Source of the DNA: a bacterium
GTDB taxonomy: Bacteria; Patescibacteriota; Dojkabacteria; GCA-016699595
Assembly (NCBI GenBank): GCA_016699595.1
Contig: CP064982.1
Location: forward strand, 643,118-707,117
Direction of reading: 5' to 3'
DNA: 64,000 nucleotides
Shown piece by piece: positions 4,796 through 63,951 of the stretch. The notes under the pieces are model-generated. The model made no database searches, was not told where the DNA came from, and worked only from the letters and a program-made list of their open reading frames with translations. Position numbers and translations under genes: made by a program. Within the stretch, counting starts at the first letter, position 1. Each line of letters begins with the position of its first letter.

Positions 4796-7126
4796 TTAAG
4801 AATGATTAATATTTGCTTGCCTCTTATACAAGGAAATTCCAAAACTAAATATTATTGAAGATAATATCAGATTTGGCAAACTACTTGCACCAGTTTCTCC
4901 TAGTATAGCACCTCCATCACCATTTCCTGTATCTGTCACTCCCAACACCGCAGGATTTGTTACAGTAACTGTATCTGAACTTGTATTATTAGCAGGATCT
5001 AGATCGCCACAAGCAAAGTAAACAGATGCTACATTCGTTGATGTTGTTTGAGTTTGATTTGTTATACTTACATTTATATTTATTTGAGATACTTCATTCA
5101 ACTGCATCGACGAATTTCTTGTGCAAGTAACATTTTGACCAACTGCTCCACAAACCCAACCGTTACCAGCATATGATAAAAATTGCATACCTAAAGGCAA
5201 TGTATCATTCACAATAATCGGTCCATTTGCTACATTGGGACCATAGTTACTCACTGAGAGTGTAAATGTTCCTGATTGGCCTTTCACGAAATTACCTATA
5301 TGAGATTTGATTAAGTTCAAGTTAGTATTCAGACAAACATTTCCAGCGCTAGATGTTGAATTTGTGTTTGCAGTTTGTGTACCTGCTACGTCCCCACTAC
5401 TGGTAGTAGTGACTGTTAGTGAAGAAGTATTTGCAACTTGAGTAGTATTTGTACTATTTACAGTATTAGTAGAAGCATTCGAAACTGAGGATGACATTGA
5501 TCCTGATTCACTAGTATTAGTTAAGTCGGAGGTATTTTGACTTGCTACACTTGATAACGAGTTGGTTGCTGAAGAACAGCTGCTTTGACACCTCACGCAA
5601 TTATTAACAATATTATTAATATTCTCAATATTTAGATTGTTATTATTGCCTATTATATTTATGTAAAAAACAGTAGTAGTCGCCATGTTTGAACAAGAAT
5701 TCTGACAAGTCATTTGATTACAAGTATTTTGCGAGCCAGCTATTTCTGATGAAATTGTACTAGTAGAATTTGCAGATATTGATGTACTTGTAGCTGTCCC
5801 TACTGAACTAAGTGTAGAATTACTTGTTGCAGAAGAATCTAAACTACTTACACTTGTACTGTTGATTTGAGTTGATGTATTACTAGATGTTGTAGAGCAA
5901 GAGCAATTACTAATTGTTGAACATTGAGCTTCATTCTCACAATTATTACAACAAGAATTTCCACAATAGTTATTCTCAAAGTGTTGATTTACTTCATTAT
6001 CATCACCAATAACAACTGCACCTTGAAAATTACCGCCGAAGTTGATATTTATTGGGTAAATCGAATTTATAGATGTTGAAGCGAATTGCGATGTTGAGGA
6101 GGTCATTGTAGAAACGGTAGAAACCGAACTAGTAGAAGATCCTGAACTATTCATACTACTTAGAGTCGAAGTCACAGTAACTGCACTTGATGCTGAGTCA
6201 GATGAAGTACTTGCTGTACAAACATTTGCAGTGACTAGTGTAGGGCCTATAAATGATATATTTTCATCAGTACCTTGTGTTGAAGATATACCTGCTACTT
6301 CGAACGGTAGTTCACCTTCTACATTTGTACTATTGACCGTATCATCGTCCCCAACAATTACAAGCATTTTTGATACTTTCGTTGAATCATCGGCTAGAAA
6401 TCCAATCCACCTTGTTGTTTTATTTCCACAACCTACATAATAGTTTTCTGAACTAGTCGAACCACACAGAGATTGATTTGAAGTACTTGTCGCTATGTTG
6501 GCATTTCCAATCTCATCATTGTCTTCATTATAATATTTAACAAATGCCAATGCTCCACCAAATACATCTGGATTTCGCGTTTCAAGATCTCCGAACCATG
6601 TACCAAATGCACTTACTGGACTAGAAAAACTAAACAAAAATCCAATTCTATTTCCATCTTCTGCATTTAGCAATTCATTTACATAACAACTATTATCCAC
6701 AAGGGATTGTGGTCTTGGAGAACTATCTTGAAGTATACTAGAATTTCCACATCCTGAAACTTTGCTATTCCAGTCACTGGTTCGATTTATCATATTCTGC
6801 GTCGAATCTATTTCAACAACCTGAACATGAACAGAAACTCCGTTTGCAACTACTAAATTTGTACCATCAAAAGAGTCATTTAGCAGTTTACGAGTGATCA
6901 GTGTTGAATTCTCTCCGTTGCATTGATACAATTCAGTTACATCTGAATACCACTCATTGTCTAAATCATCAACAGCACTGCGTATTGACTGTGTATTTGA
7001 ACCATTACCAACTTCATTGGATATATAGGATGTTACTGCAGCTTGAGATTGAGACGGAAACAAAATCGTGAATGCAGAAAAAAGCAAAAATGTATACGAT
7101 ATTGTTTGGACAGTTTTTTTGAACAT
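4796..7126 (-). CDS. large secreted Ser/Thr-rich, Cys-rich surface protein with a DUF11-type repeat domain and a C-terminal LPN-type anchor
   Basis: Signal peptide [29 protein letters not shown]. Long S/T-rich tracts. Cys clusters ([18 protein letters not shown]). DUF11-like segment [49 protein letters not shown]-terminus ...[25 protein letters not shown]. Confidence 0.7.
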
Positions 7127-26377: not shown

Positions 26378-26920
26378 CGTCGTATTTTAGCATATCTAGC
26401 AAATTTATATGTAACAAGATCCATTCTGGGAAATATCAGTATATTTATAAACAAACCTAATTAAGATTGTCAATATAAATCAACTTAAAAAGATATTTTT
26501 ATCCAAGCATTATTTTCATAATTCTTAGAATATTTTTTACATTTATAAACACTGCATTGAAATTTAAATTTGACAATGTTTGCATAATCCACAGTCATAA
26601 TGACTAAAAGTTTGCATTTTTATTTTGTAAAACAAAATAAAAAATTTTCTCATTTTTTACTTGCAATCATTTCAAAAATTTTGTAAAAATGTATTGGGAT
26701 CTTTTAAGTATAACTTAGTTACTAAATCTAGAAATTACTCAAGGCAATTTATTGCCACACAAGACTTGAAGGATTCAAGTTGCTTGTGTAATTTAAAAGA
26801 AAGATCAAAATTATTTTTGATAACTTTTATAGAATAATTATTTGGATTTTGTATAGACTAGTCGATAATGAAATGCGCAATCATTATTTATCGTAACTAA
26901 TGTGGTTTTAACTTAGGGAT

Positions 26921-26990
26921 CCCACACTGCCCAACTGTTACACGCCCCACCGAGACTGCCAGACTGCCTTTACTGCCAAACTGCCCAATT
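26921..26990. repeat. GC-rich island with five copies of ACTGCC at 8-10 bp spacing, abutting the DnaA box
   Basis: cccacACTGCCcaACTGttacacgccccaccgagACTGCCagACTGCCtttACTGCCaaACTGCCcaa. Local GC is >50% against a ~30% background. Confidence 0.6.
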
Positions 26991-26991
26991 T

Positions 26992-27000
26992 TGTGGATAA
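26992..27000 (-). promoter_or_regulatory. perfect DnaA box (TTATCCACA on minus strand) ~85 bp upstream of the dnaA start
   Basis: The plus strand reads tgtggataa. Confidence 0.6.
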
Positions 27001-27083
27001 CTTTTTGGAAAAATGCTATTCTACATCATTCGTTTATGACAATAGTTAGTTCTATAACATACAGATATTTACTTACCTAAAAC

Positions 27084-28445
27084 TTGGACTTATCGACAAT
27101 TTGGAAAAAAACACAAACTCAGCTTGAAATCAGACTTGAACCTAGTACATATAATAGATTTTTCAAGTACACTGAATTGAAAAAAATTGATGAAGGTACT
27201 GCGATAATTGGTACCCATTCGACTTTTAGTTCAAACATTTTACAGACAAAACATAAAAAAACTATCAGCGATTTGCTTTCAATAAATTACGGAAAATTGC
27301 TCAAAGTTAAGTTTGAAGTTGATCCTGACATGGTAGACTTAGCAACTAAAGATAGATCTACTCTTTTAGTTGATGAGCTTCCTATTTTCCAAACGAATGC
27401 AAACCCAGACCTAACTGCGAAACTTGGCTACTGCAACCTGAATTCAAAGTTCACTTTTGACAATTTCATTGTAGGTGATTCCAATAGACTTGCTCATGCA
27501 GCTGCAACTTCGATTTTGAACAAAAAAAACAGGTTTAATCCCTTTTTTATATATGGAAAAACCGGACTTGGAAAAACTCATCTAGTTCAAGCAATTGGAA
27601 TATCTTTTCTTGAAAAAGATTTGTCTAAGAAAGTTCTATATGTTCCTTCAGAAACTTTTTTAAATGATTTAGTTCGATCTATTCGAACACAAACTACTCT
27701 TGATTTTCGAAAAAAATACAGAGAACTTGATTTGTTGATAATTGACGATATTCAATTGATTTCAAAATGGGTAGAAACACAAAATGAATTTTTCAATACT
27801 TTCAATGTGTTGAATTTGTCAGACAAACAAGTTATCTTGATTTCAGACAGACCACCAGAAGAGATCCAGAATTTAGAAGATAGGCTTAAGTCTAGATTCC
27901 AAGGAGGACTGTCTGTTAGTATTAGCGAACCAGAGCTTGAAACGAGATACGCTATTTTGTTGCAAAAACAAAAAGATCTTGAAACCAACTTAAGAAATGA
28001 GATCTTAAGAGATATAGCACGGATAGTTACTACAAATATCCGAGAACTTGAAGGTGCTTTGACTAAAGTCAATCTTATGCAATCACTCAAAGACTCAGAT
28101 TTGACAAGTGAGGAAGTTGCATCGATTTTGGGAAAAGAACATTCAGAGCGTAAAATCGCCAACCCGAATGATGTCTTGAGAATAATTGGAGCAGAGTATG
28201 GCGTAAGTTTACAGGAATTGAAGTCTGAGAGACGCACTGCCAATATCGCATTTGCTCGCCAGATCGCTATGTATATATTTGCAATAGAATTAGGTTTCAA
28301 ACTAGAGAAAATTGCAGAAATTTTGAAAAGGAAGGATCATACTACAGTTTTGCACGGTCGAAATAAAATAGAAACTCAAATGAAAATGGATGCTGGACTT
28401 CGAAGTAGAATTGAAAAAATTACCAATCAAGTCTTTTATAATTAA
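27084..28445 (+). CDS. dnaA: chromosomal replication initiator DnaA
   Basis: Walker A NPFFIYGKTGLGKTHLVQAIG, AAA+ motifs (LLIIDDIQ), and a C-terminal DNA-binding helix-turn-helix region ..ANIAFARQIAMYI..HTTVLHG. The start codon appears to be TTG. Confidence 0.95.
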   Translation: MDLSTIWKKTQTQLEIRLEPSTYNRFFKYTELKKIDEGTAIIGTHSTFSSNILQTKHKKTISDLLSINYGKLLKVKFEVDPDMVDLATKDRSTLLVDELPIFQTNANPDLTAKLGYCNLNSKFTFDNFIVGDSNRLAHAAATSILNKKNRFNPFFIYGKTGLGKTHLVQAIGISFLEKDLSKKVLYVPSETFLNDLVRSIRTQTTLDFRKKYRELDLLIIDDIQLISKWVETQNEFFNTFNVLNLSDKQVILISDRPPEEIQNLEDRLKSRFQGGLSVSISEPELETRYAILLQKQKDLETNLRNEILRDIARIVTTNIRELEGALTKVNLMQSLKDSDLTSEEVASILGKEHSERKIANPNDVLRIIGAEYGVSLQELKSERRTANIAFARQIAMYIFAIELGFKLEKIAEILKRKDHTTVLHGRNKIETQMKMDAGLRSRIEKITNQVFYN

Positions 28446-29245
28446 TGACACTACCACAGTACTTAAAAAGCAAACGAGAAGAAATTGGGGAAACTGTTGA
28501 AGATATCTCCACTAGGTCTAAAGTTAGTAAAGAATATATTTATGCGATTGAATCTGGTGATTACTCAATTTTCGAGGCAGAGGTTTTCAGAAAAGGTTGG
28601 ATCAAAATTTACGCGAGATTATTAAACTTAGATGAAGAGTATGTACTTGCACTTGATAGAAGAGAAAATCCTAATATCCAATCAAAACCAATTATCCAAA
28701 AAGGCAGTAATAAATACAAAGTCTCATTAACTGACCAAAAAGTCAGTCAAAATTCCTCAACAAATTCAAATAAAAAGCTTACTAGTATCGAGAGATTTCA
28801 AAAACCAAAGTTTTTCTTCACAAAATCAAAAGTTTCATTTATAGTTGGGGTAATTTTGGCTATTGGTTTTGTTTTTTTTGGATTACGACAATTTCGTTTG
28901 GTAAATGAATCTCCTGAATTGAACTTAAATTCTCCGATTACACTTTCAATGAAAGATATGAACGAGGACTCCGTCACACAAACCCTAACTACAAACAAAA
29001 GTCAAATTACTATCTCAGGTAATATTGATCCAAACGATCAGCTATATATACAAGGAGCTTTGTCTAGATGGAATTCGACAGGACAATTTAGGTTTGAAAA
29101 CTACATGCTCAATAAAGGCGAGAATGTACTAAAAATCGAAGCAAAAAACAAGTTGGGTAAAAGTAGCGTAATTGAACTTAAGATCATCTATGATGAAACG
29201 GAGCCTACTTTTACAACAAGCTCTAGTACTAGCATTAGTCTTTAG
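28445..29245 (+). CDS. HTH (XRE-type) domain, single-TM membrane protein with RodZ-like topology
   Basis: N-terminal LKSKREEIGETVEDISTRSKVSKEYIYAIESGDY is an XRE-like HTH. TM FIVGVILAIGFVFFGL follows, then a ~110-aa extracytoplasmic domain. The start overlaps the dnaA stop. Confidence 0.4.
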   Translation: MTLPQYLKSKREEIGETVEDISTRSKVSKEYIYAIESGDYSIFEAEVFRKGWIKIYARLLNLDEEYVLALDRRENPNIQSKPIIQKGSNKYKVSLTDQKVSQNSSTNSNKKLTSIERFQKPKFFFTKSKVSFIVGVILAIGFVFFGLRQFRLVNESPELNLNSPITLSMKDMNEDSVTQTLTTNKSQITISGNIDPNDQLYIQGALSRWNSTGQFRFENYMLNKGENVLKIEAKNKLGKSSVIELKIIYDETEPTFTTSSSTSISL

Positions 29246-29248
29246 TCT

Positions 29249-30283
29249 TTGATTTTGATCTTTTTTTGTGATTCAATACTAACTATAATGAATTATACAA
29301 GAAGGAATATAACTGCATCGAAACCTGGGACTAAGAAAGTTTTGGTAGCCAAAAAAATTGTTTTGGCTATTCTCTTTTTCTTGATTTCTGCATTTCTCTA
29401 CAGTCTCTATGCTCTAAAAATCCGCATCATTGATCTTGAAGGAAACGATGATAACTTGAAATCTCAAATCTATAGCGTTGTAGAGAAATATGAAAATACA
29501 AGATTTTTGTTTATATCTCCATCCAAACTACAATCTGAGTTAGATGAACAATTTGGAAGTGTCAGTATTATACAAGTTGACAAACTTTATCCAAATAAAT
29601 TAATCATTAAGTACGAAAAGGCTAAGCCTATCGCAAGAATCTTTTGCGAAGAAGACTCAGCAATATTGAGTAGCAATTTTTTGTTAATGAACATTGTAGA
29701 GCAGCCTAATTATAGGTTAGAGCCAAAATTACGGGCATTGCTGAAAGATGAAGTTACTGTAAATAATAACTCTATGTCGCAAAGCTCTACTAGCACAGAG
29801 AGTACTTTGGCATCATCAGCTATCGCTAACATTAGTTCCATTGCTTCATCATTAGAATCAAATAGTTTAAATATTACTCTAAACTCCGAAGAACTTTTGG
29901 CATCTAGAAGAACCATGTATTCTGATGCATTCAAATTTATAAATGATCTTAGAAAATCTGATTCTGTTACATCAGAAACTAGCTTGCTTGAGGTAGAAAA
30001 TTTACCATCTATCTTTTGCCTTGATTCCTCTGCAACAATAAATTTGGAAATGATAAAAAAGTTCAAAGAACTTCTAGAGAATGTTCCTTCAAAGGAAAAC
30101 AATGTCTTCATCATTGATAACAGATTTATCTATGACAATCAAGGTGTGATTGAAATATACTCCATACTTGAGTCTTATGAAGTTCAAAATTTTCGATTAT
30201 CAAAAGTCATGGAGCATCTAGAGATCGATGGACAAGGATATAGACAGATTGATATAAGAAGGGATAAGGTTGTCGTTTATTGA
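29249..30283 (+). CDS. FtsQ/DivIB-like cell-division protein (TM plus POTRA-like domain)
   Basis: TM LAILFFLISAFLYSLYAL followed by KIRIIDLEGNDDNLKSQIYSVVEKY..FLFISPSKLQSEL..SIIQVDKLYPNKLIIKYEKAKPIARI, which matches the FtsQ POTRA pattern. The true start is probably the Met of MNYTRRN near 29288. Confidence 0.5.
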   Translation: MILIFFCDSILTIMNYTRRNITASKPGTKKVLVAKKIVLAILFFLISAFLYSLYALKIRIIDLEGNDDNLKSQIYSVVEKYENTRFLFISPSKLQSELDEQFGSVSIIQVDKLYPNKLIIKYEKAKPIARIFCEEDSAILSSNFLLMNIVEQPNYRLEPKLRALLKDEVTVNNNSMSQSSTSTESTLASSAIANISSIASSLESNSLNITLNSEELLASRRTMYSDAFKFINDLRKSDSVTSETSLLEVENLPSIFCLDSSATINLEMIKKFKELLENVPSKENNVFIIDNRFIYDNQGVIEIYSILESYEVQNFRLSKVMEHLEIDGQGYRQIDIRRDKVVVY

Positions 30284-32644: not shown

Positions 32645-32663
32645 GGCAGTTAGTAAGTTTTTG

Positions 32664-55246: not shown

Positions 55247-56380
55247 TTAATCAATTCTCATCGTCATTATCAAATGAAGATAGTTATCTTCCCCATAAAA
55301 TAGTGCTGGAGAATTGGCATTTTTTGTTTGGAATATTATATCATCTTTTGAAAAACATCTCAAAGCATCTTGCAAGTACTTTAGATTGAATGCAATATCT
55401 AGTTCCTCTTGTCCTTGGTTTTCAACGATCATTGTTGTTTCAATTTTACCTTTCTCAATATCTGTTGAAAAAATTTTTAAATTCTTTCCTCTTAGTGAGA
55501 GTATAGTTTTATAACCAAGTAGATTTCTTGACACATTATTTACAATTTTCAAATTCATCAACATCTCATCTCTATTGAAAATAAATTTGTAACTTTCTTC
55601 TGTTGGAATTAAACTTTTGTAATCTGGGAAATTTGCATCAATTATTCTTGCAAAACAAGATATCTCATTCTTTTCAACAATTCTAAACTCAACTTGACTT
55701 AAATTTCCTTCTTTATCATCTATTGGGTATAGTTTTACTTGGTCAAAATCAAAATCAAGTAACGATTGAAATATTGATGCGTTTAATATAAATGGCTTTT
55801 TCAATTTTGACATTGTAGAAACTTCTAATTTGGCTAATCTAAAACCATCTACTGAAACAAGATGCACATTTTCTTTATTATCACTATTTAGAAAATCAAA
55901 GTAAATGCCCTCTAGTGCTGGTCTTGAAGGATCTTGTGATATTGAACTCAATAGTTTATCAACAATATTTTGAACTTCTTGCCTACTTAGTGTCATAAAG
56001 TTATCTTGGAAACTTTTGTCAAAGCTTGGAAATTCGTTTGACTCAGAAATACTAAAGTCTCCACTTGCAAAGTTTGTTTTCATCTCTAATTTATTTTTGC
56101 CAAAGTTCAACTCAACATCAACTTCTGGCAGTGAGCTTAGAAAACCTAGAAAATCTTTTGTTCCAATTGCAAAACTATCAAAACTTTCTAAGTTATCAAT
56201 TTCTGAAAAAGTATAAATAATTGATTTTTCAAGATCTGTTGCTTTTATTTGCAATTTACTTTCTTCAAATGAAAAAATGAGTTTTCCAAGTGAAGAGTCT
56301 ATCATCTTTGTAGATGAGAACTTTGAGATAGATACTAGTATCTTGGTTAATTTTGATGATGAAAATTTGAGTTTAGACAC
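55247..56380 (-). CDS. dnaN: DNA polymerase III beta sliding clamp
   Basis: N-terminus ..SKLQIKATDLEKSIIYTF and C-terminus YLQDALRCFSKDDIIFQTKNANSPALFYGEDNYLHLIMTMRID fit the DnaN pattern (YLlDaL...MPmRl). 377 aa. Confidence 0.8.
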   Translation of the reverse strand: MSKLKFSSSKLTKILVSISKFSSTKMIDSSLGKLIFSFEESKLQIKATDLEKSIIYTFSEIDNLESFDSFAIGTKDFLGFLSSLPEVDVELNFGKNKLEMKTNFASGDFSISESNEFPSFDKSFQDNFMTLSRQEVQNIVDKLLSSISQDPSRPALEGIYFDFLNSDNKENVHLVSVDGFRLAKLEVSTMSKLKKPFILNASIFQSLLDFDFDQVKLYPIDDKEGNLSQVEFRIVEKNEISCFARIIDANFPDYKSLIPTEESYKFIFNRDEMLMNLKIVNNVSRNLLGYKTILSLRGKNLKIFSTDIEKGKIETTMIVENQGQEELDIAFNLKYLQDALRCFSKDDIIFQTKNANSPALFYGEDNYLHLIMTMRID

Positions 56381-56760
56381 TTTGATTTGTTAAATTAATA
56401 TAATGTAAATTAATTAAATAAGATAAGTATTTTTATTAGAGACTGTATATATGTGCATAAGTCAATAATTATGAAACAGTAAATTACTTTGACCTATTTT
56501 AACATCTACATTTCTCAAAAACAAAAGTTATAGAAAAGTTTGTAGACAAAAGTTTATTATTAGTATATCTAGATTTTGTTAAGTATATATAAGGTAGTTT
56601 TCAAAGAATAAGAAGTTTATATGTCAATTACATTGTGGATGTAATTTTAAGTTGGTGTATAAAAGCTAAGAAAGTTAATTATGAAATAATATTCAAAAAG
56701 AGAAAGAAAGGAAAGTAAACATAAACTTTTATAAAGAAGAAATTTCACAATAAAGAAATT

Positions 56761-62558: not shown

Positions 62559-62598
62559 TTAAAATATTAAATACACAAACTGCCGAAATAAAAAATAA

Positions 62599-63951
62599 AT
62601 GTTAATACAATCATCAAACAACAACTTTGCAAAAATAAAAGTAGTGGGAGTAGGAGGAGGAGGAGGCAATGCTGTGAATAATATGGTTTTGAACTACATG
62701 ATTGAAGGTGTAGAATTTGTGTCAGCCAATACAGACGCACAGGCACTTGCAAACAATAATGCAGAAGTAAAGCTTCAACTTGGACCAGAAACGACTAGAG
62801 GGCTTGGTGCTGGCGGAAATGCTAGCGTGGGAAGAAAGGCGGCAGAAGAATCTACAAGCGCAATTCAAGAGATGGTTGCAGGAGCTGACATGGTCTTTGT
62901 TACAGCTGGTATGGGTGGTGGAACTGGCACAGGTGCTGCACCAATTATTGCTAAAATTGCAAAAGAGGCAGGAGCATTGACAGTTGGGGTGGTAACAAAA
63001 CCATTTGAATTCGAAGGCAAAAGAAGGATGGTTAATGCCTTAGAGGGTATCCAAGAAATGGTAGGAGCTGTTGACACATTAATTGTTATTCCAAATCAGA
63101 GATTACTAGATATTGTAGATAAAAATGTAAGTTTTTTTGAAGCAATGAGGAAGGTTGATGATGTTTTGGGCCAAGCTGTCAAGTCAATAGCTTCGCTTGT
63201 AGTTTCTCCAGGTCTTATCAATGTCGATTTTGCTGATGTTAAGACCGTAATGACAAATGCAGGAACTGCACTTATGGGAATTGGTACAGCTCAAGGTGAT
63301 GATAGGGCAATTGAGGCTGCCAAAATGGCAGTAAACTCACCGTTGCTTGATGTGACTATAGATGGAGCAACTGGGGTGCTGTTCAATATTTCTGGTGGTC
63401 CAGATGATTTGACAATGACAGAAATTGATGATGCTGCAAAGCTTATACATCAAGTAGTTGATCCAGAGGCGAATATTATATTTGGTGCAACAATCGATCC
63501 GAATATGAAAGGTACAGTTTCAATAACAGTTATTGCTACAGGGTTTAGAGAAGATGTAAATCAATATGGTGATTATCAAGACCGCACTGATCTTGCTGAT
63601 ATGAGCAAGGCTCATACTACAAGTCAGGATTTCTATACACCAACATTTTCAATTCCTAGCTACAATATTAACGAAAGTCAAAAAGATAAAGCTGATGAAT
63701 ATAACTTAGGGGATTATCGAGAAAATGCGCTGGTTGATGACACTATAGAATTTGATGAAGTTGATAATGAGGAGAAAGCGGAGTATCCAAATTATGTAAA
63801 TTATGTGAAGCAAGAAAGTATTGATCCTCAAACGCAAAAAAATGAACCTAAAGCAGGATTTATGAGGTTTCCATTTGCAAAAAAGCAAGAAGATATAGAT
63901 CCAAATACAAATATGGATGATTTTGATACTCCTGCAATATTTAGGAGTTAA
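62599..63951 (+). CDS. ftsZ: cell-division GTPase FtsZ
   Basis: [18 protein letters not shown] (tubulin signature), ..[24 protein letters not shown].., T7 loop NVDFADV. Long acidic C-terminal tail. Confidence 0.95.

Follow-up and report, generated by a model that had tools for sequence, protein, structure and literature searches.

What reads an array of ACTGCC repeats that stands beside a DnaA box, immediately upstream of the replication initiator gene dnaA? We addressed this question for positions 26,921-26,990 of a 64-kb stretch of bacterial DNA (hereafter the window, meaning the whole stretch analysed, 64,000 nucleotides with a GC content of 32.6%), where a first-pass annotation, made from the letters alone, had noted a GC-rich island with five such repeats. 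The reading that we favour, with a probability of roughly 45%, is that ACUGCC(C) serves as a strand-specific recognition motif of a clade-specific RNA element upstream of dnaA, where it would be read by a putative factor. Recognition of the sense-strand RNA is favoured because the motif shows a strict strand bias and variable spacing, and because in four other lineages it lies within covarying hairpin structures, in loops, linkers or terminator arms. That some sequence-specific factor recognises the array is almost certain.

The array comprises five exact ACTGCC copies on the plus strand, starting at 26926, 26955, 26963, 26972 and 26980, with start-to-start distances of 8, 9 and 8 nt among the last four, in agreement with the copy number and the spacing first reported. 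The plus-strand letters of 26921-26990, CCCACACTGCCCAACTGTTACACGCCCCACCGAGACTGCCAGACTGCCTTTACTGCCAAACTGCCCAATT, amount to 17 A, 30 C, 10 G and 13 T (57% GC, 43% C, 14% G, C/G = 3), and the GC content of a 60-nt window within the island reaches 58%, whereas that of the flanking 60-nt windows is 15-32%. A perfect DnaA box, TGTGGATAA, begins six bases past the last copy, and the end of the array lies 98 bp from the dnaA start at 27084, close to the ~95 bp first estimated. The island is housed in a non-coding gap of 706 bp (26378-27083), by far the largest in the tightly packed window, with a leftward ABC-2 permease gene on one side and the rightward dnaA on the other. In an independent Logan assembly (L081), the island sequence is identical. 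The features concerned are as follows.

26921..26990, plus strand: C-rich, G-poor tract with the array (composition, folding)
26926..26932, plus strand: motif copy 1, ACTGCCC, in the context cacACTGCCCaac (sequence)
26934..26939, plus strand: degenerate copy ACTGTT (read directly from the sequence)
26955..26960, plus strand: motif copy 2, ACTGCC (sequence)
26963..26968, plus strand: motif copy 3, ACTGCC (sequence)
26972..26977, plus strand: motif copy 4, ACTGCC (sequence)
26980..26986, plus strand: motif copy 5, ACTGCCC, in ACTGCCCAAT, the extended form common to the relatives (sequence)
26992..27000, minus strand: perfect DnaA box, TTATCCACA on this strand (sequence search)
27084..28445, plus strand: dnaA, 453 aa, with the domains Bac_DnaA, DnaA_C and DnaA_N (open reading frame (ORF) and Pfam)

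This DnaA box had been called the only perfect one; it is indeed the sole perfect box of this intergenic region, but the window holds a second perfect TTATCCACA at 6693-6701, which lies in a coding region. Counting up to one mismatch, the window contains 45 DnaA-box-like 9-mers, double the 23 expected.

We then considered whether the array could arise by chance or belong to a dispersed repeat. In the window, which covers ~8% of the source genome (dnaA lies on a contig of 761,814 bp) and bounds our dispersal and target searches there, ACTGCC occurs 18 times on both strands versus ~12 expected, and 5 of the 10 plus-strand copies are packed within 60 nt. At the island's own base composition, ~0.03 copies per 60 nt would be expected, as calculated from base counts, and no other non-homopolymer hexamer in the 64 kb is as strongly clustered, which bears out the motif enrichment that the first-pass annotation had proposed to check. 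A block-shuffle control for hexamer clustering was uninformative, as it counted overlapping low-complexity hexamers (3 of 200 shuffles reached at least five). ACTGCC pairs within 40 nt of each other are found in the array only, and all but two of the copies outside it lie inside genes. The array is non-random, is not a dispersed repeat, and is positionally tied to dnaA; a motif scattered throughout the genome, the finding that the annotation had said would overturn it, is not what these 64 kb contain, since the array is their sole ACTGCC cluster. Contamination, vector or mobile DNA was rejected as its source, as a blastn search of the locus gave no phage or plasmid match and the independent assembly is identical. 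A leader peptide or small ORF across the array was rejected as well, since no ORF extends over the tract and a period of 8-9 nt does not maintain a reading frame. The two non-coding copies outside the array are located at 32645-32650 (minus strand), abutting the ATG of a ComM-like gene (AACTGCCATG), and at 62579-62584 (plus strand), 15-20 nt upstream of a start at 62599.

The best named relatives of the window's DnaA belong to Candidatus Dojkabacteria (WS6) and other Patescibacteria, and the next-closest DnaA is only 57% identical. No close relative was found for alignment, and contig scans of genomes and metagenomes gave mostly distant phyla. We thus compared motifs rather than alignments, using the dnaA regions of the eight closest DnaA clusters (P0002-P0009). 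As a result, all seven clade loci with enough upstream sequence carried [A]CTGCC[C] in 2-6 copies on the sense strand upstream of dnaA, whereas 152 further dnaA loci, drawn from diverse bacteria with more distant Dojkabacteria among them, contained no motif pair on either strand within 800 nt upstream of dnaA. The dnaA-linked array, which the first-pass annotation had suggested seeking in related genomes, is thus present throughout these clade loci. The seven motif-bearing loci represent five lineages, between which DnaA identity is 50-57% and the intergenic DNA is otherwise unalignable, and the consensus across the clade is ACUGCC(C), ACUGCCCAA. The closest relative, L173, has six motif copies, including ACTGCCCcaaaaACTGCCacACTGCC and ACTGCCCAAAT; the motif regions of L084 and L168 read ACTGCCCcaagaACTGCC and CTGCCCattaatCTGCCC, respectively; and L082, L167 and L170, which form subclade A, each have CTGCCCC, 37 nt, and then ACTGCCCAAAA. 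L169 was uninformative with only 79 nt of upstream sequence, and L165, in which a thioredoxin gene lies 56 nt upstream of dnaA, has no motif anywhere in 4.8 kb.

Furthermore, an unbiased k-mer comparison identified CTGCC as the sole 5-mer with at least three G/C for which each of the five lineages has two or more copies in the 400 nt preceding dnaA, a result reproduced by none of 5000 shuffles. Sites with at most one mismatch to ACTGCCC number 23 in the dnaA sense and 0 in the antisense orientation, with 0.9 expected per strand. Across 64 kb, 21.4 kb and 16.9 kb from three genomes, the region upstream of dnaA is the only place with motif copies paired at 40 nt or less. The intervals between copies are 29, 8, 9 and 8 nt in the window; in the relatives, intervals of 12, 8 and 37 nt occur, and the loci differ greatly in how far the copies stand from the DnaA box and from the dnaA start. 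Single-strand recognition suits the array better than a phased oligomer on duplex DNA, because the spacing varies in this way (8, 9, 12 and 37 nt). For finding further clade members, we give the pattern ACTGCCCAA within 400 nt of dnaA.

In the relatives, these motifs are part of RNA-like units. In subclade A, they lie within a conserved unit of ~115 nt, which comprises in order a promoter-like TTGCA(G/C)...TACATT, a hairpin with the loop UUUUCUGCCCCUAUUG, a linker (U/A)ACUGCCCAAAA, and a hairpin followed by a U-run. The RNAalifold consensus of the three sequences contains 32 pairs, 6 of which show compensatory double changes, and both CUGCCC motifs are invariant and predicted to be unpaired, one in the loop and the other in the linker. 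The single-sequence fold is well below shuffles (z = -5.6). Only ~45 nt separate the end of the L082 terminator from the corrected dnaA ATG; this leaves little room for a separate promoter and points to a leader or attenuator. In L167 and L170, a DnaA box and further sequence intervene between the unit and dnaA, and an independent small RNA is also possible. The divergent upstream gene of subclade A, on the opposite strand ~585-705 nt upstream of dnaA (L082 ~2416, L167, L170), begins M-D-N-T-L-P and carries CACTGCC(C) at codons 4-6, placing the motif also at the 5' end of a neighbouring mRNA in these three genomes.

In L084 and the first unit of L173, the motifs overlap the 5' arm and loop of stable hairpins, with -18 and -21 kcal/mol (z = -3.2 and -3.5), respectively; a U-run comes after each hairpin, and the two stems differ by a compensatory G-C to A-U change (CCCAAGAA/UUCUUGGG versus CCCAAAAA/UUUUUGGG). 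A second unit of L173 (z = -4.0) has a promoter-like box that agrees with the consensus at 10 of 12 positions, together with a single ACUGCCC and a hairpin with U-run. In L168, a hairpin with U-run starts right after the second motif, and its fold is no better than shuffles (z = -0.5). The motifs are predicted to be unpaired in subclade A and the window, and partly paired in the terminator arm in L084 and L173. The promoter-like box and the hairpin with U-run that an independent small RNA unit would have are present in L082, L167, L170, L173 and L084, while the window lacks the terminator. A palindrome containing GATC, GGGATCCC, stands directly 5' of motif copy 1 in the window (26917-26924), and GGATCC is also present upstream of the proximal unit of L173.

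Simple promoter and terminator scans gave nothing decisive in these loci; the terminator scan demands three G-C pairs, and the AU-rich terminators of the relatives fail it. Rfam 15 scans of the window, the intergenic region and five relatives, with gathering thresholds and with E-values up to 1-10, returned only two tRNAs and chance-level matches, and ARAGORN found only tRNA-Leu and tRNA-Arg in the window. In the literature, no description of such an element was found.

The window version of the element takes a different form. Folded as RNA, the tract has a minimum free energy of -15.8 kcal/mol, whereas the shuffle mean is -23.2 kcal/mol (z = +2.2), and none of the 200 shuffles folds worse. 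The last copies and the sequence following them align loosely with the terminator region of L084 and L173, and a 5-bp remnant stem (CCAAA/UUUGG) encloses the DnaA box. On the plus strand, two promoter-like elements flank the array.

26661..26690, plus strand: putative distal promoter-like element, TTGCAA (26661-26666), 18-nt spacer, TGtAAAAAT (26682-26690)
27006..27014, plus strand: possible proximal extended -10 element TGgAAAAAT, a duplicate of 26682-26690

The distal element would put the array in a transcript of ~390 nt running toward dnaA. In six clade loci, the motifs are preceded on their own strand, at a distance of 55-265 nt, by a TTGCA-type promoter-like box, and TTGCAA-N16-18-TAnnnT is probably a local promoter consensus, because it is about threefold enriched in the window (23 observed versus 7 expected). 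In the outgroup Dojkabacteria L085, L086 and L001, a TTGCAA box with a DnaA box in its spacer lies close to dnaA. The duplicated sequence, TTTTG[T/G]AAAAATG, occurs at 26679-26691 and 27003-27015, and both occurrences resemble extended -10 elements (TGnAAAAAT). To judge from these likenesses, dnaA may have a distal and a proximal promoter, which would bracket the ACTGCC array and the DnaA box. From the window alone, motifs in a long dnaA leader cannot be separated from sites upstream of a proximal promoter. Between the distal box and the array, 26743-26789 forms two adjacent perfect hairpins, GGCAAUuuAUUGCC and CACAAGACUUGAA...UUCAAGUugCUUGUG (z = -2.7 on either strand), of which no homologue was seen in the relatives.

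On the favoured reading, an element between the AT-rich part of oriC and dnaA would be transcribed. In the relatives, it would start from the promoter-like TTGCA-type box and present a structured 5' part, 2-4 exposed ACUGCC(C) motifs, and a terminator that starts at or inside the last motif, with the unit ending just before the DnaA box or the dnaA start. A trans-acting factor would read the single-stranded motifs, with an oligomeric RNA-binding protein as the first choice and a G-rich complementary RNA target as the second. Its binding could control formation of the adjacent terminator and, with it, read-through into dnaA, by the logic of an attenuator; alternatively, it could control the activity of a small RNA, by the logic of a C-rich seed or a sponge. 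A multimeric RNA-binding protein appears most likely, because binding at the terminator-arm motifs would give simple antitermination. In the window genome, the intrinsic terminator would have decayed and the motif expanded to five copies in an unstructured 65-nt tract, which might act as a higher-avidity platform for the same factor.

Protein-dependent RNA systems with repeated motifs include TRAP at the trp leader, HutP at the hut leader, and CsrA/RsmE sites with their CsrB/RsmZ sponges. The clade element resembles them in that several short motif copies, all on one strand and with short variable spacers, abut or overlap a terminator upstream of a gene (L084, L173 and L082), and the 4-5 window copies with 2-3-nt spacers recall the triplet spacers of TRAP. 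It differs from them in the unrelated motif sequence, in the window's lack of a terminator, and in the putative regulated gene, dnaA, for which we know of no such attenuator. The specific proposal that the ACUGCC(C) repeats are the platform of an oligomeric protein binding single-stranded RNA (or single-stranded DNA), which would gate terminator read-through before dnaA as a TRAP/HutP-style switch, is one that we offer as a doubtful but concrete form of the RNA reading.

A second likeness is to the RsaE/RoxS-type small RNAs of Firmicutes, which carry redundant C-rich seed motifs, CCCC/UCCC (PMC6158497, PMC5419742). The ~115-nt unit of the relatives has a comparable layout, with a promoter-like box, an intrinsic terminator, and at least two C-rich motifs in the loop and the pre-terminator linker. 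However, the motif is ACUGCCC, there is no sequence or Rfam similarity, the location beside dnaA is fixed, and the 64 kb hold no G-rich targets near ribosome-binding sites; the window, with five copies, also has no terminator and no structured scaffold around the array. The element is a candidate new regulatory RNA motif before the replication initiator gene of a clade of the Candidate Phyla Radiation (CPR), as judged from sequence comparison.

Accounts of how dnaA is controlled usually centre on DnaA boxes, methylation and sequestration, and protein turnover. If the RNA reading is correct, an RNA-level layer, attenuator or small RNA, would be added to the control of this initiator gene, and, if the attenuation switch is correct as well, chromosome replication of host-dependent CPR bacteria would be coupled to a signal sensed by a protein. 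Essentially nothing experimental is known on replication control in CPR/Patescibacteria. The 7-9-nt motif ACUGCCCAA would provide a concrete bait for the factor, and the units constitute a compact candidate RNA family without an Rfam entry.

Several results weigh against recognition at the RNA level. The window lacks the terminator present in every relative, as its best hairpin after the array is of -4 kcal/mol and the terminator scan found none there, and a covariance model built from the subclade A RNA found no match in the window and a weak one in L173 (E = 0.53); homology of the window array to the units of the relatives thus rests on the short motif and its position. The covariation itself comes from two or three sequences per structure, in five lineages in all. 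Transcription of the island is suggested by promoter-like sequences only, and the -10 part of the distal element is imperfect. As for the factor, neither GGGCAG nor GGCAGT occurs near start codons in the 64 kb, and Pfam searches of 57 of the ~61 long window ORFs revealed no Rho, Hfq, CsrA or other obvious RNA-binding regulator, and no candidate binder. Finally, the window and L173 have the sequence TGTGGATAACTTTT in common at the perfect DnaA box, and a motif copy in the window, or the near-copy ACTACCCAAT in L173, stands a few nucleotides upstream of it (6 nt in L173), by the possible proximal dnaA promoter, an arrangement that also suits an activator or repressor acting on DNA.

This last arrangement leads to the alternative that survives best, unlikely as we judge it, namely a duplex-DNA operator or accessory-factor array, at which a response regulator or helix-turn-helix protein would bind the ACTGCC(C) repeats and modulate dnaA transcription or the assembly of DnaA at oriC. 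The near-copy retained beside TGTGGATAACTTTT in L173 fits such a site, as do the conserved association with dnaA and the place of the window array, six bases from a perfect DnaA box and at about -20 to -90 relative to the possible extended -10 element (27006-27014). Regulator sites in oriC and dnaA promoters are moreover common in bacteria, as with the MtrA direct repeats of mycobacteria, the Spo0A boxes of Bacillus, and the CtrA sites of Caulobacter; these too are short, lineage-specific, non-DnaA motifs repeated near DnaA boxes and the dnaA promoter. They act, however, on duplex DNA, often in both orientations and through a known regulator, whereas all 23 copies of the clade motif have one orientation and, in the relatives, stand in RNA-like hairpin and terminator units. 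An operator would have no role for the covariation-supported hairpin loop of subclade A or for the terminator-stem copies of L084 and L173. Its spacings of 8-9, 12 and 37 bp are neither helically phased nor conserved, its position relative to the DnaA box and the dnaA start differs greatly from locus to locus, and no regulator gene is conserved in the neighbourhood, the HTH_25 gene after dnaA being found in the window only. The regulator-binding array of the first-pass annotation thus holds as a factor-recognition array tied to dnaA, but the binding to duplex DNA that it assumed, whether at oriC or at an operator, is less favoured than recognition at the RNA level. Even an ordinary DNA operator would still be a new lineage-specific regulator site at a CPR origin, of modest general interest.

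The annotation had also called the array iteron-like, a label that we rejected. The core is 6-7 nt and the unit 8-9 nt, whereas iterons are ~17-22-bp repeats; the spacing (29, 8, 9 and 8 nt; 12, 8 and 37 nt in the relatives) is not phased to the helix (~11 or 22 bp); and there is no adjacent cognate Rep-type initiator gene.

Termination by Rho, a less probable alternative, would make the tract a Rho utilization (rut) site, at which an untranslated upstream transcript is ended before the DnaA box and dnaA promoter, in replacement of the intrinsic terminators of the relatives. Published descriptors of such sites are an uninterrupted C>G bubble of ~78 nt, little RNA structure, and several YC dimers with 9-13-nt linkers (PMC6144790). 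Indeed, the putative leader has a single C>G bubble, with 30 C and 13 G over its best 78 nt (26917-26994), little structure is predicted for the tract (z = +2.2), and the window represents the sole lineage without a hairpin and U-run after the motifs. The linkers fit less well, since the repeats place their CC dimers at 8-9-nt intervals, with linkers of 6-7 nt instead of the 9-13 nt quoted, and the longest acceptably spaced chain is of three YC dimers (26931, 26945 and 26959). A general preference for C-richness also fails to explain the exact hexamer repeats, or the ACUGCCC conserved in AT-rich relatives with two copies, and no rho gene is present among the annotated ORFs of the 64 kb.

Comparably improbable in our estimate is another strand-specific or epigenetic role of the DNA, either as a single-stranded element for a replication protein, similar to the DnaA-trio or a DnaD recognition element, or as a cluster of asymmetric orphan methyltransferase sites, as with the GATC clusters of E. 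coli oriC and the dnaA promoter. Such a role would be consistent with the strict strand bias and with the location of the array in the only large intergenic region, between dnaA and a module resembling the basal unwinding system (BUS). According to the published rule, the DnaA box of a BUS is followed by three or more NAN triplets, read 3'->5' away from it, after a spacer that does not exceed 16 bp and of which ~4 bp are GC-rich (PMC8287927). In the window, this pattern is found at a one-mismatch box.

26585..26660, plus strand: one-mismatch DnaA box TAATCCACA (26585-26593), three NAN triplets on the complementary strand, and AT-rich 26594-26660

Judging by this pattern, 26585-26660 is more likely than the ACTGCC island to be the oriC unwinding module, and an origin near dnaA would agree with the GC skew and the gene-strand switches. 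At the perfect box, by contrast, no offset within 16 nt, nor within 40 nt, gives three NAN triplets left of 26992, so that the DnaA-trio was rejected for the array, as the first-pass annotation had already concluded. The window has a GC-rich stretch on the expected side of the box, 5' of TGTGGATAA, as E. coli oriC does with CACTGCCC, but it is a tract of ~65 bp with no run of NAN triplets within 16 nt or in the island. In E. coli MG1655 oriC (L175), positions 143-161 read gCACTGCCCTGTGGATAAC, and CACTGCCC directly abuts the R1 box TGTGGATAAC, a likeness that could favour a role in single-stranded DNA. It is isolated, however: among the other perfect DnaA boxes compared with that of the window, only the E. 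coli box has CTGCC or TGCCC within 20 nt 5' of TGTGGATAA. A general rule of CTGCCC beside a DnaA box was thereby rejected, and the E. coli likeness is probably a coincidence. Further points against these DNA roles are that the array is GC-rich and ~260 nt from the AT-rich region expected to unwind, and that the hairpin and U-run contexts of the relatives would be unexplained. For methylation in particular, the motif is not depleted elsewhere (18 observed versus 12 expected), and the analysis gave no methyltransferase evidence.

The weakest alternative, a non-functional tandem duplication of an 8-9-nt unit by slippage that came to lie upstream of dnaA by chance, could produce the four close copies with their only slightly different spacers, but it is strongly disfavoured by the same core in five lineages (50-57% DnaA identity) whose flanks are otherwise unalignable.

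The wider neighbourhood of the array is that of packed housekeeping genes, including a short IF-2. The immediate neighbours encode an ABC-2 permease, tRNA-Leu, IF-2, DnaA, an HTH_25 protein and a POTRA protein, with no Rep family among them. Downstream of dnaA (27084-30283), a RodZ-like HTH_25 gene with overlapping stop and start is followed by an FtsQ-like POTRA gene, not by dnaN, which is found 28 kb away on the opposite strand (55247-56380) with a 380-bp gap upstream of it (56381-56760). In the outgroups, strong symmetric elements also stand just upstream of dnaA, namely an inverted repeat, GAGGGACGCACAAT...ATTGTGCGTCCCTC, at 2915-2955 of L001 and a long palindrome around CCTCCTAAAGGAGG at ~1410-1520 of L174; structured elements before dnaA may thus be common in Dojkabacteria even without the ACTGCC motif.

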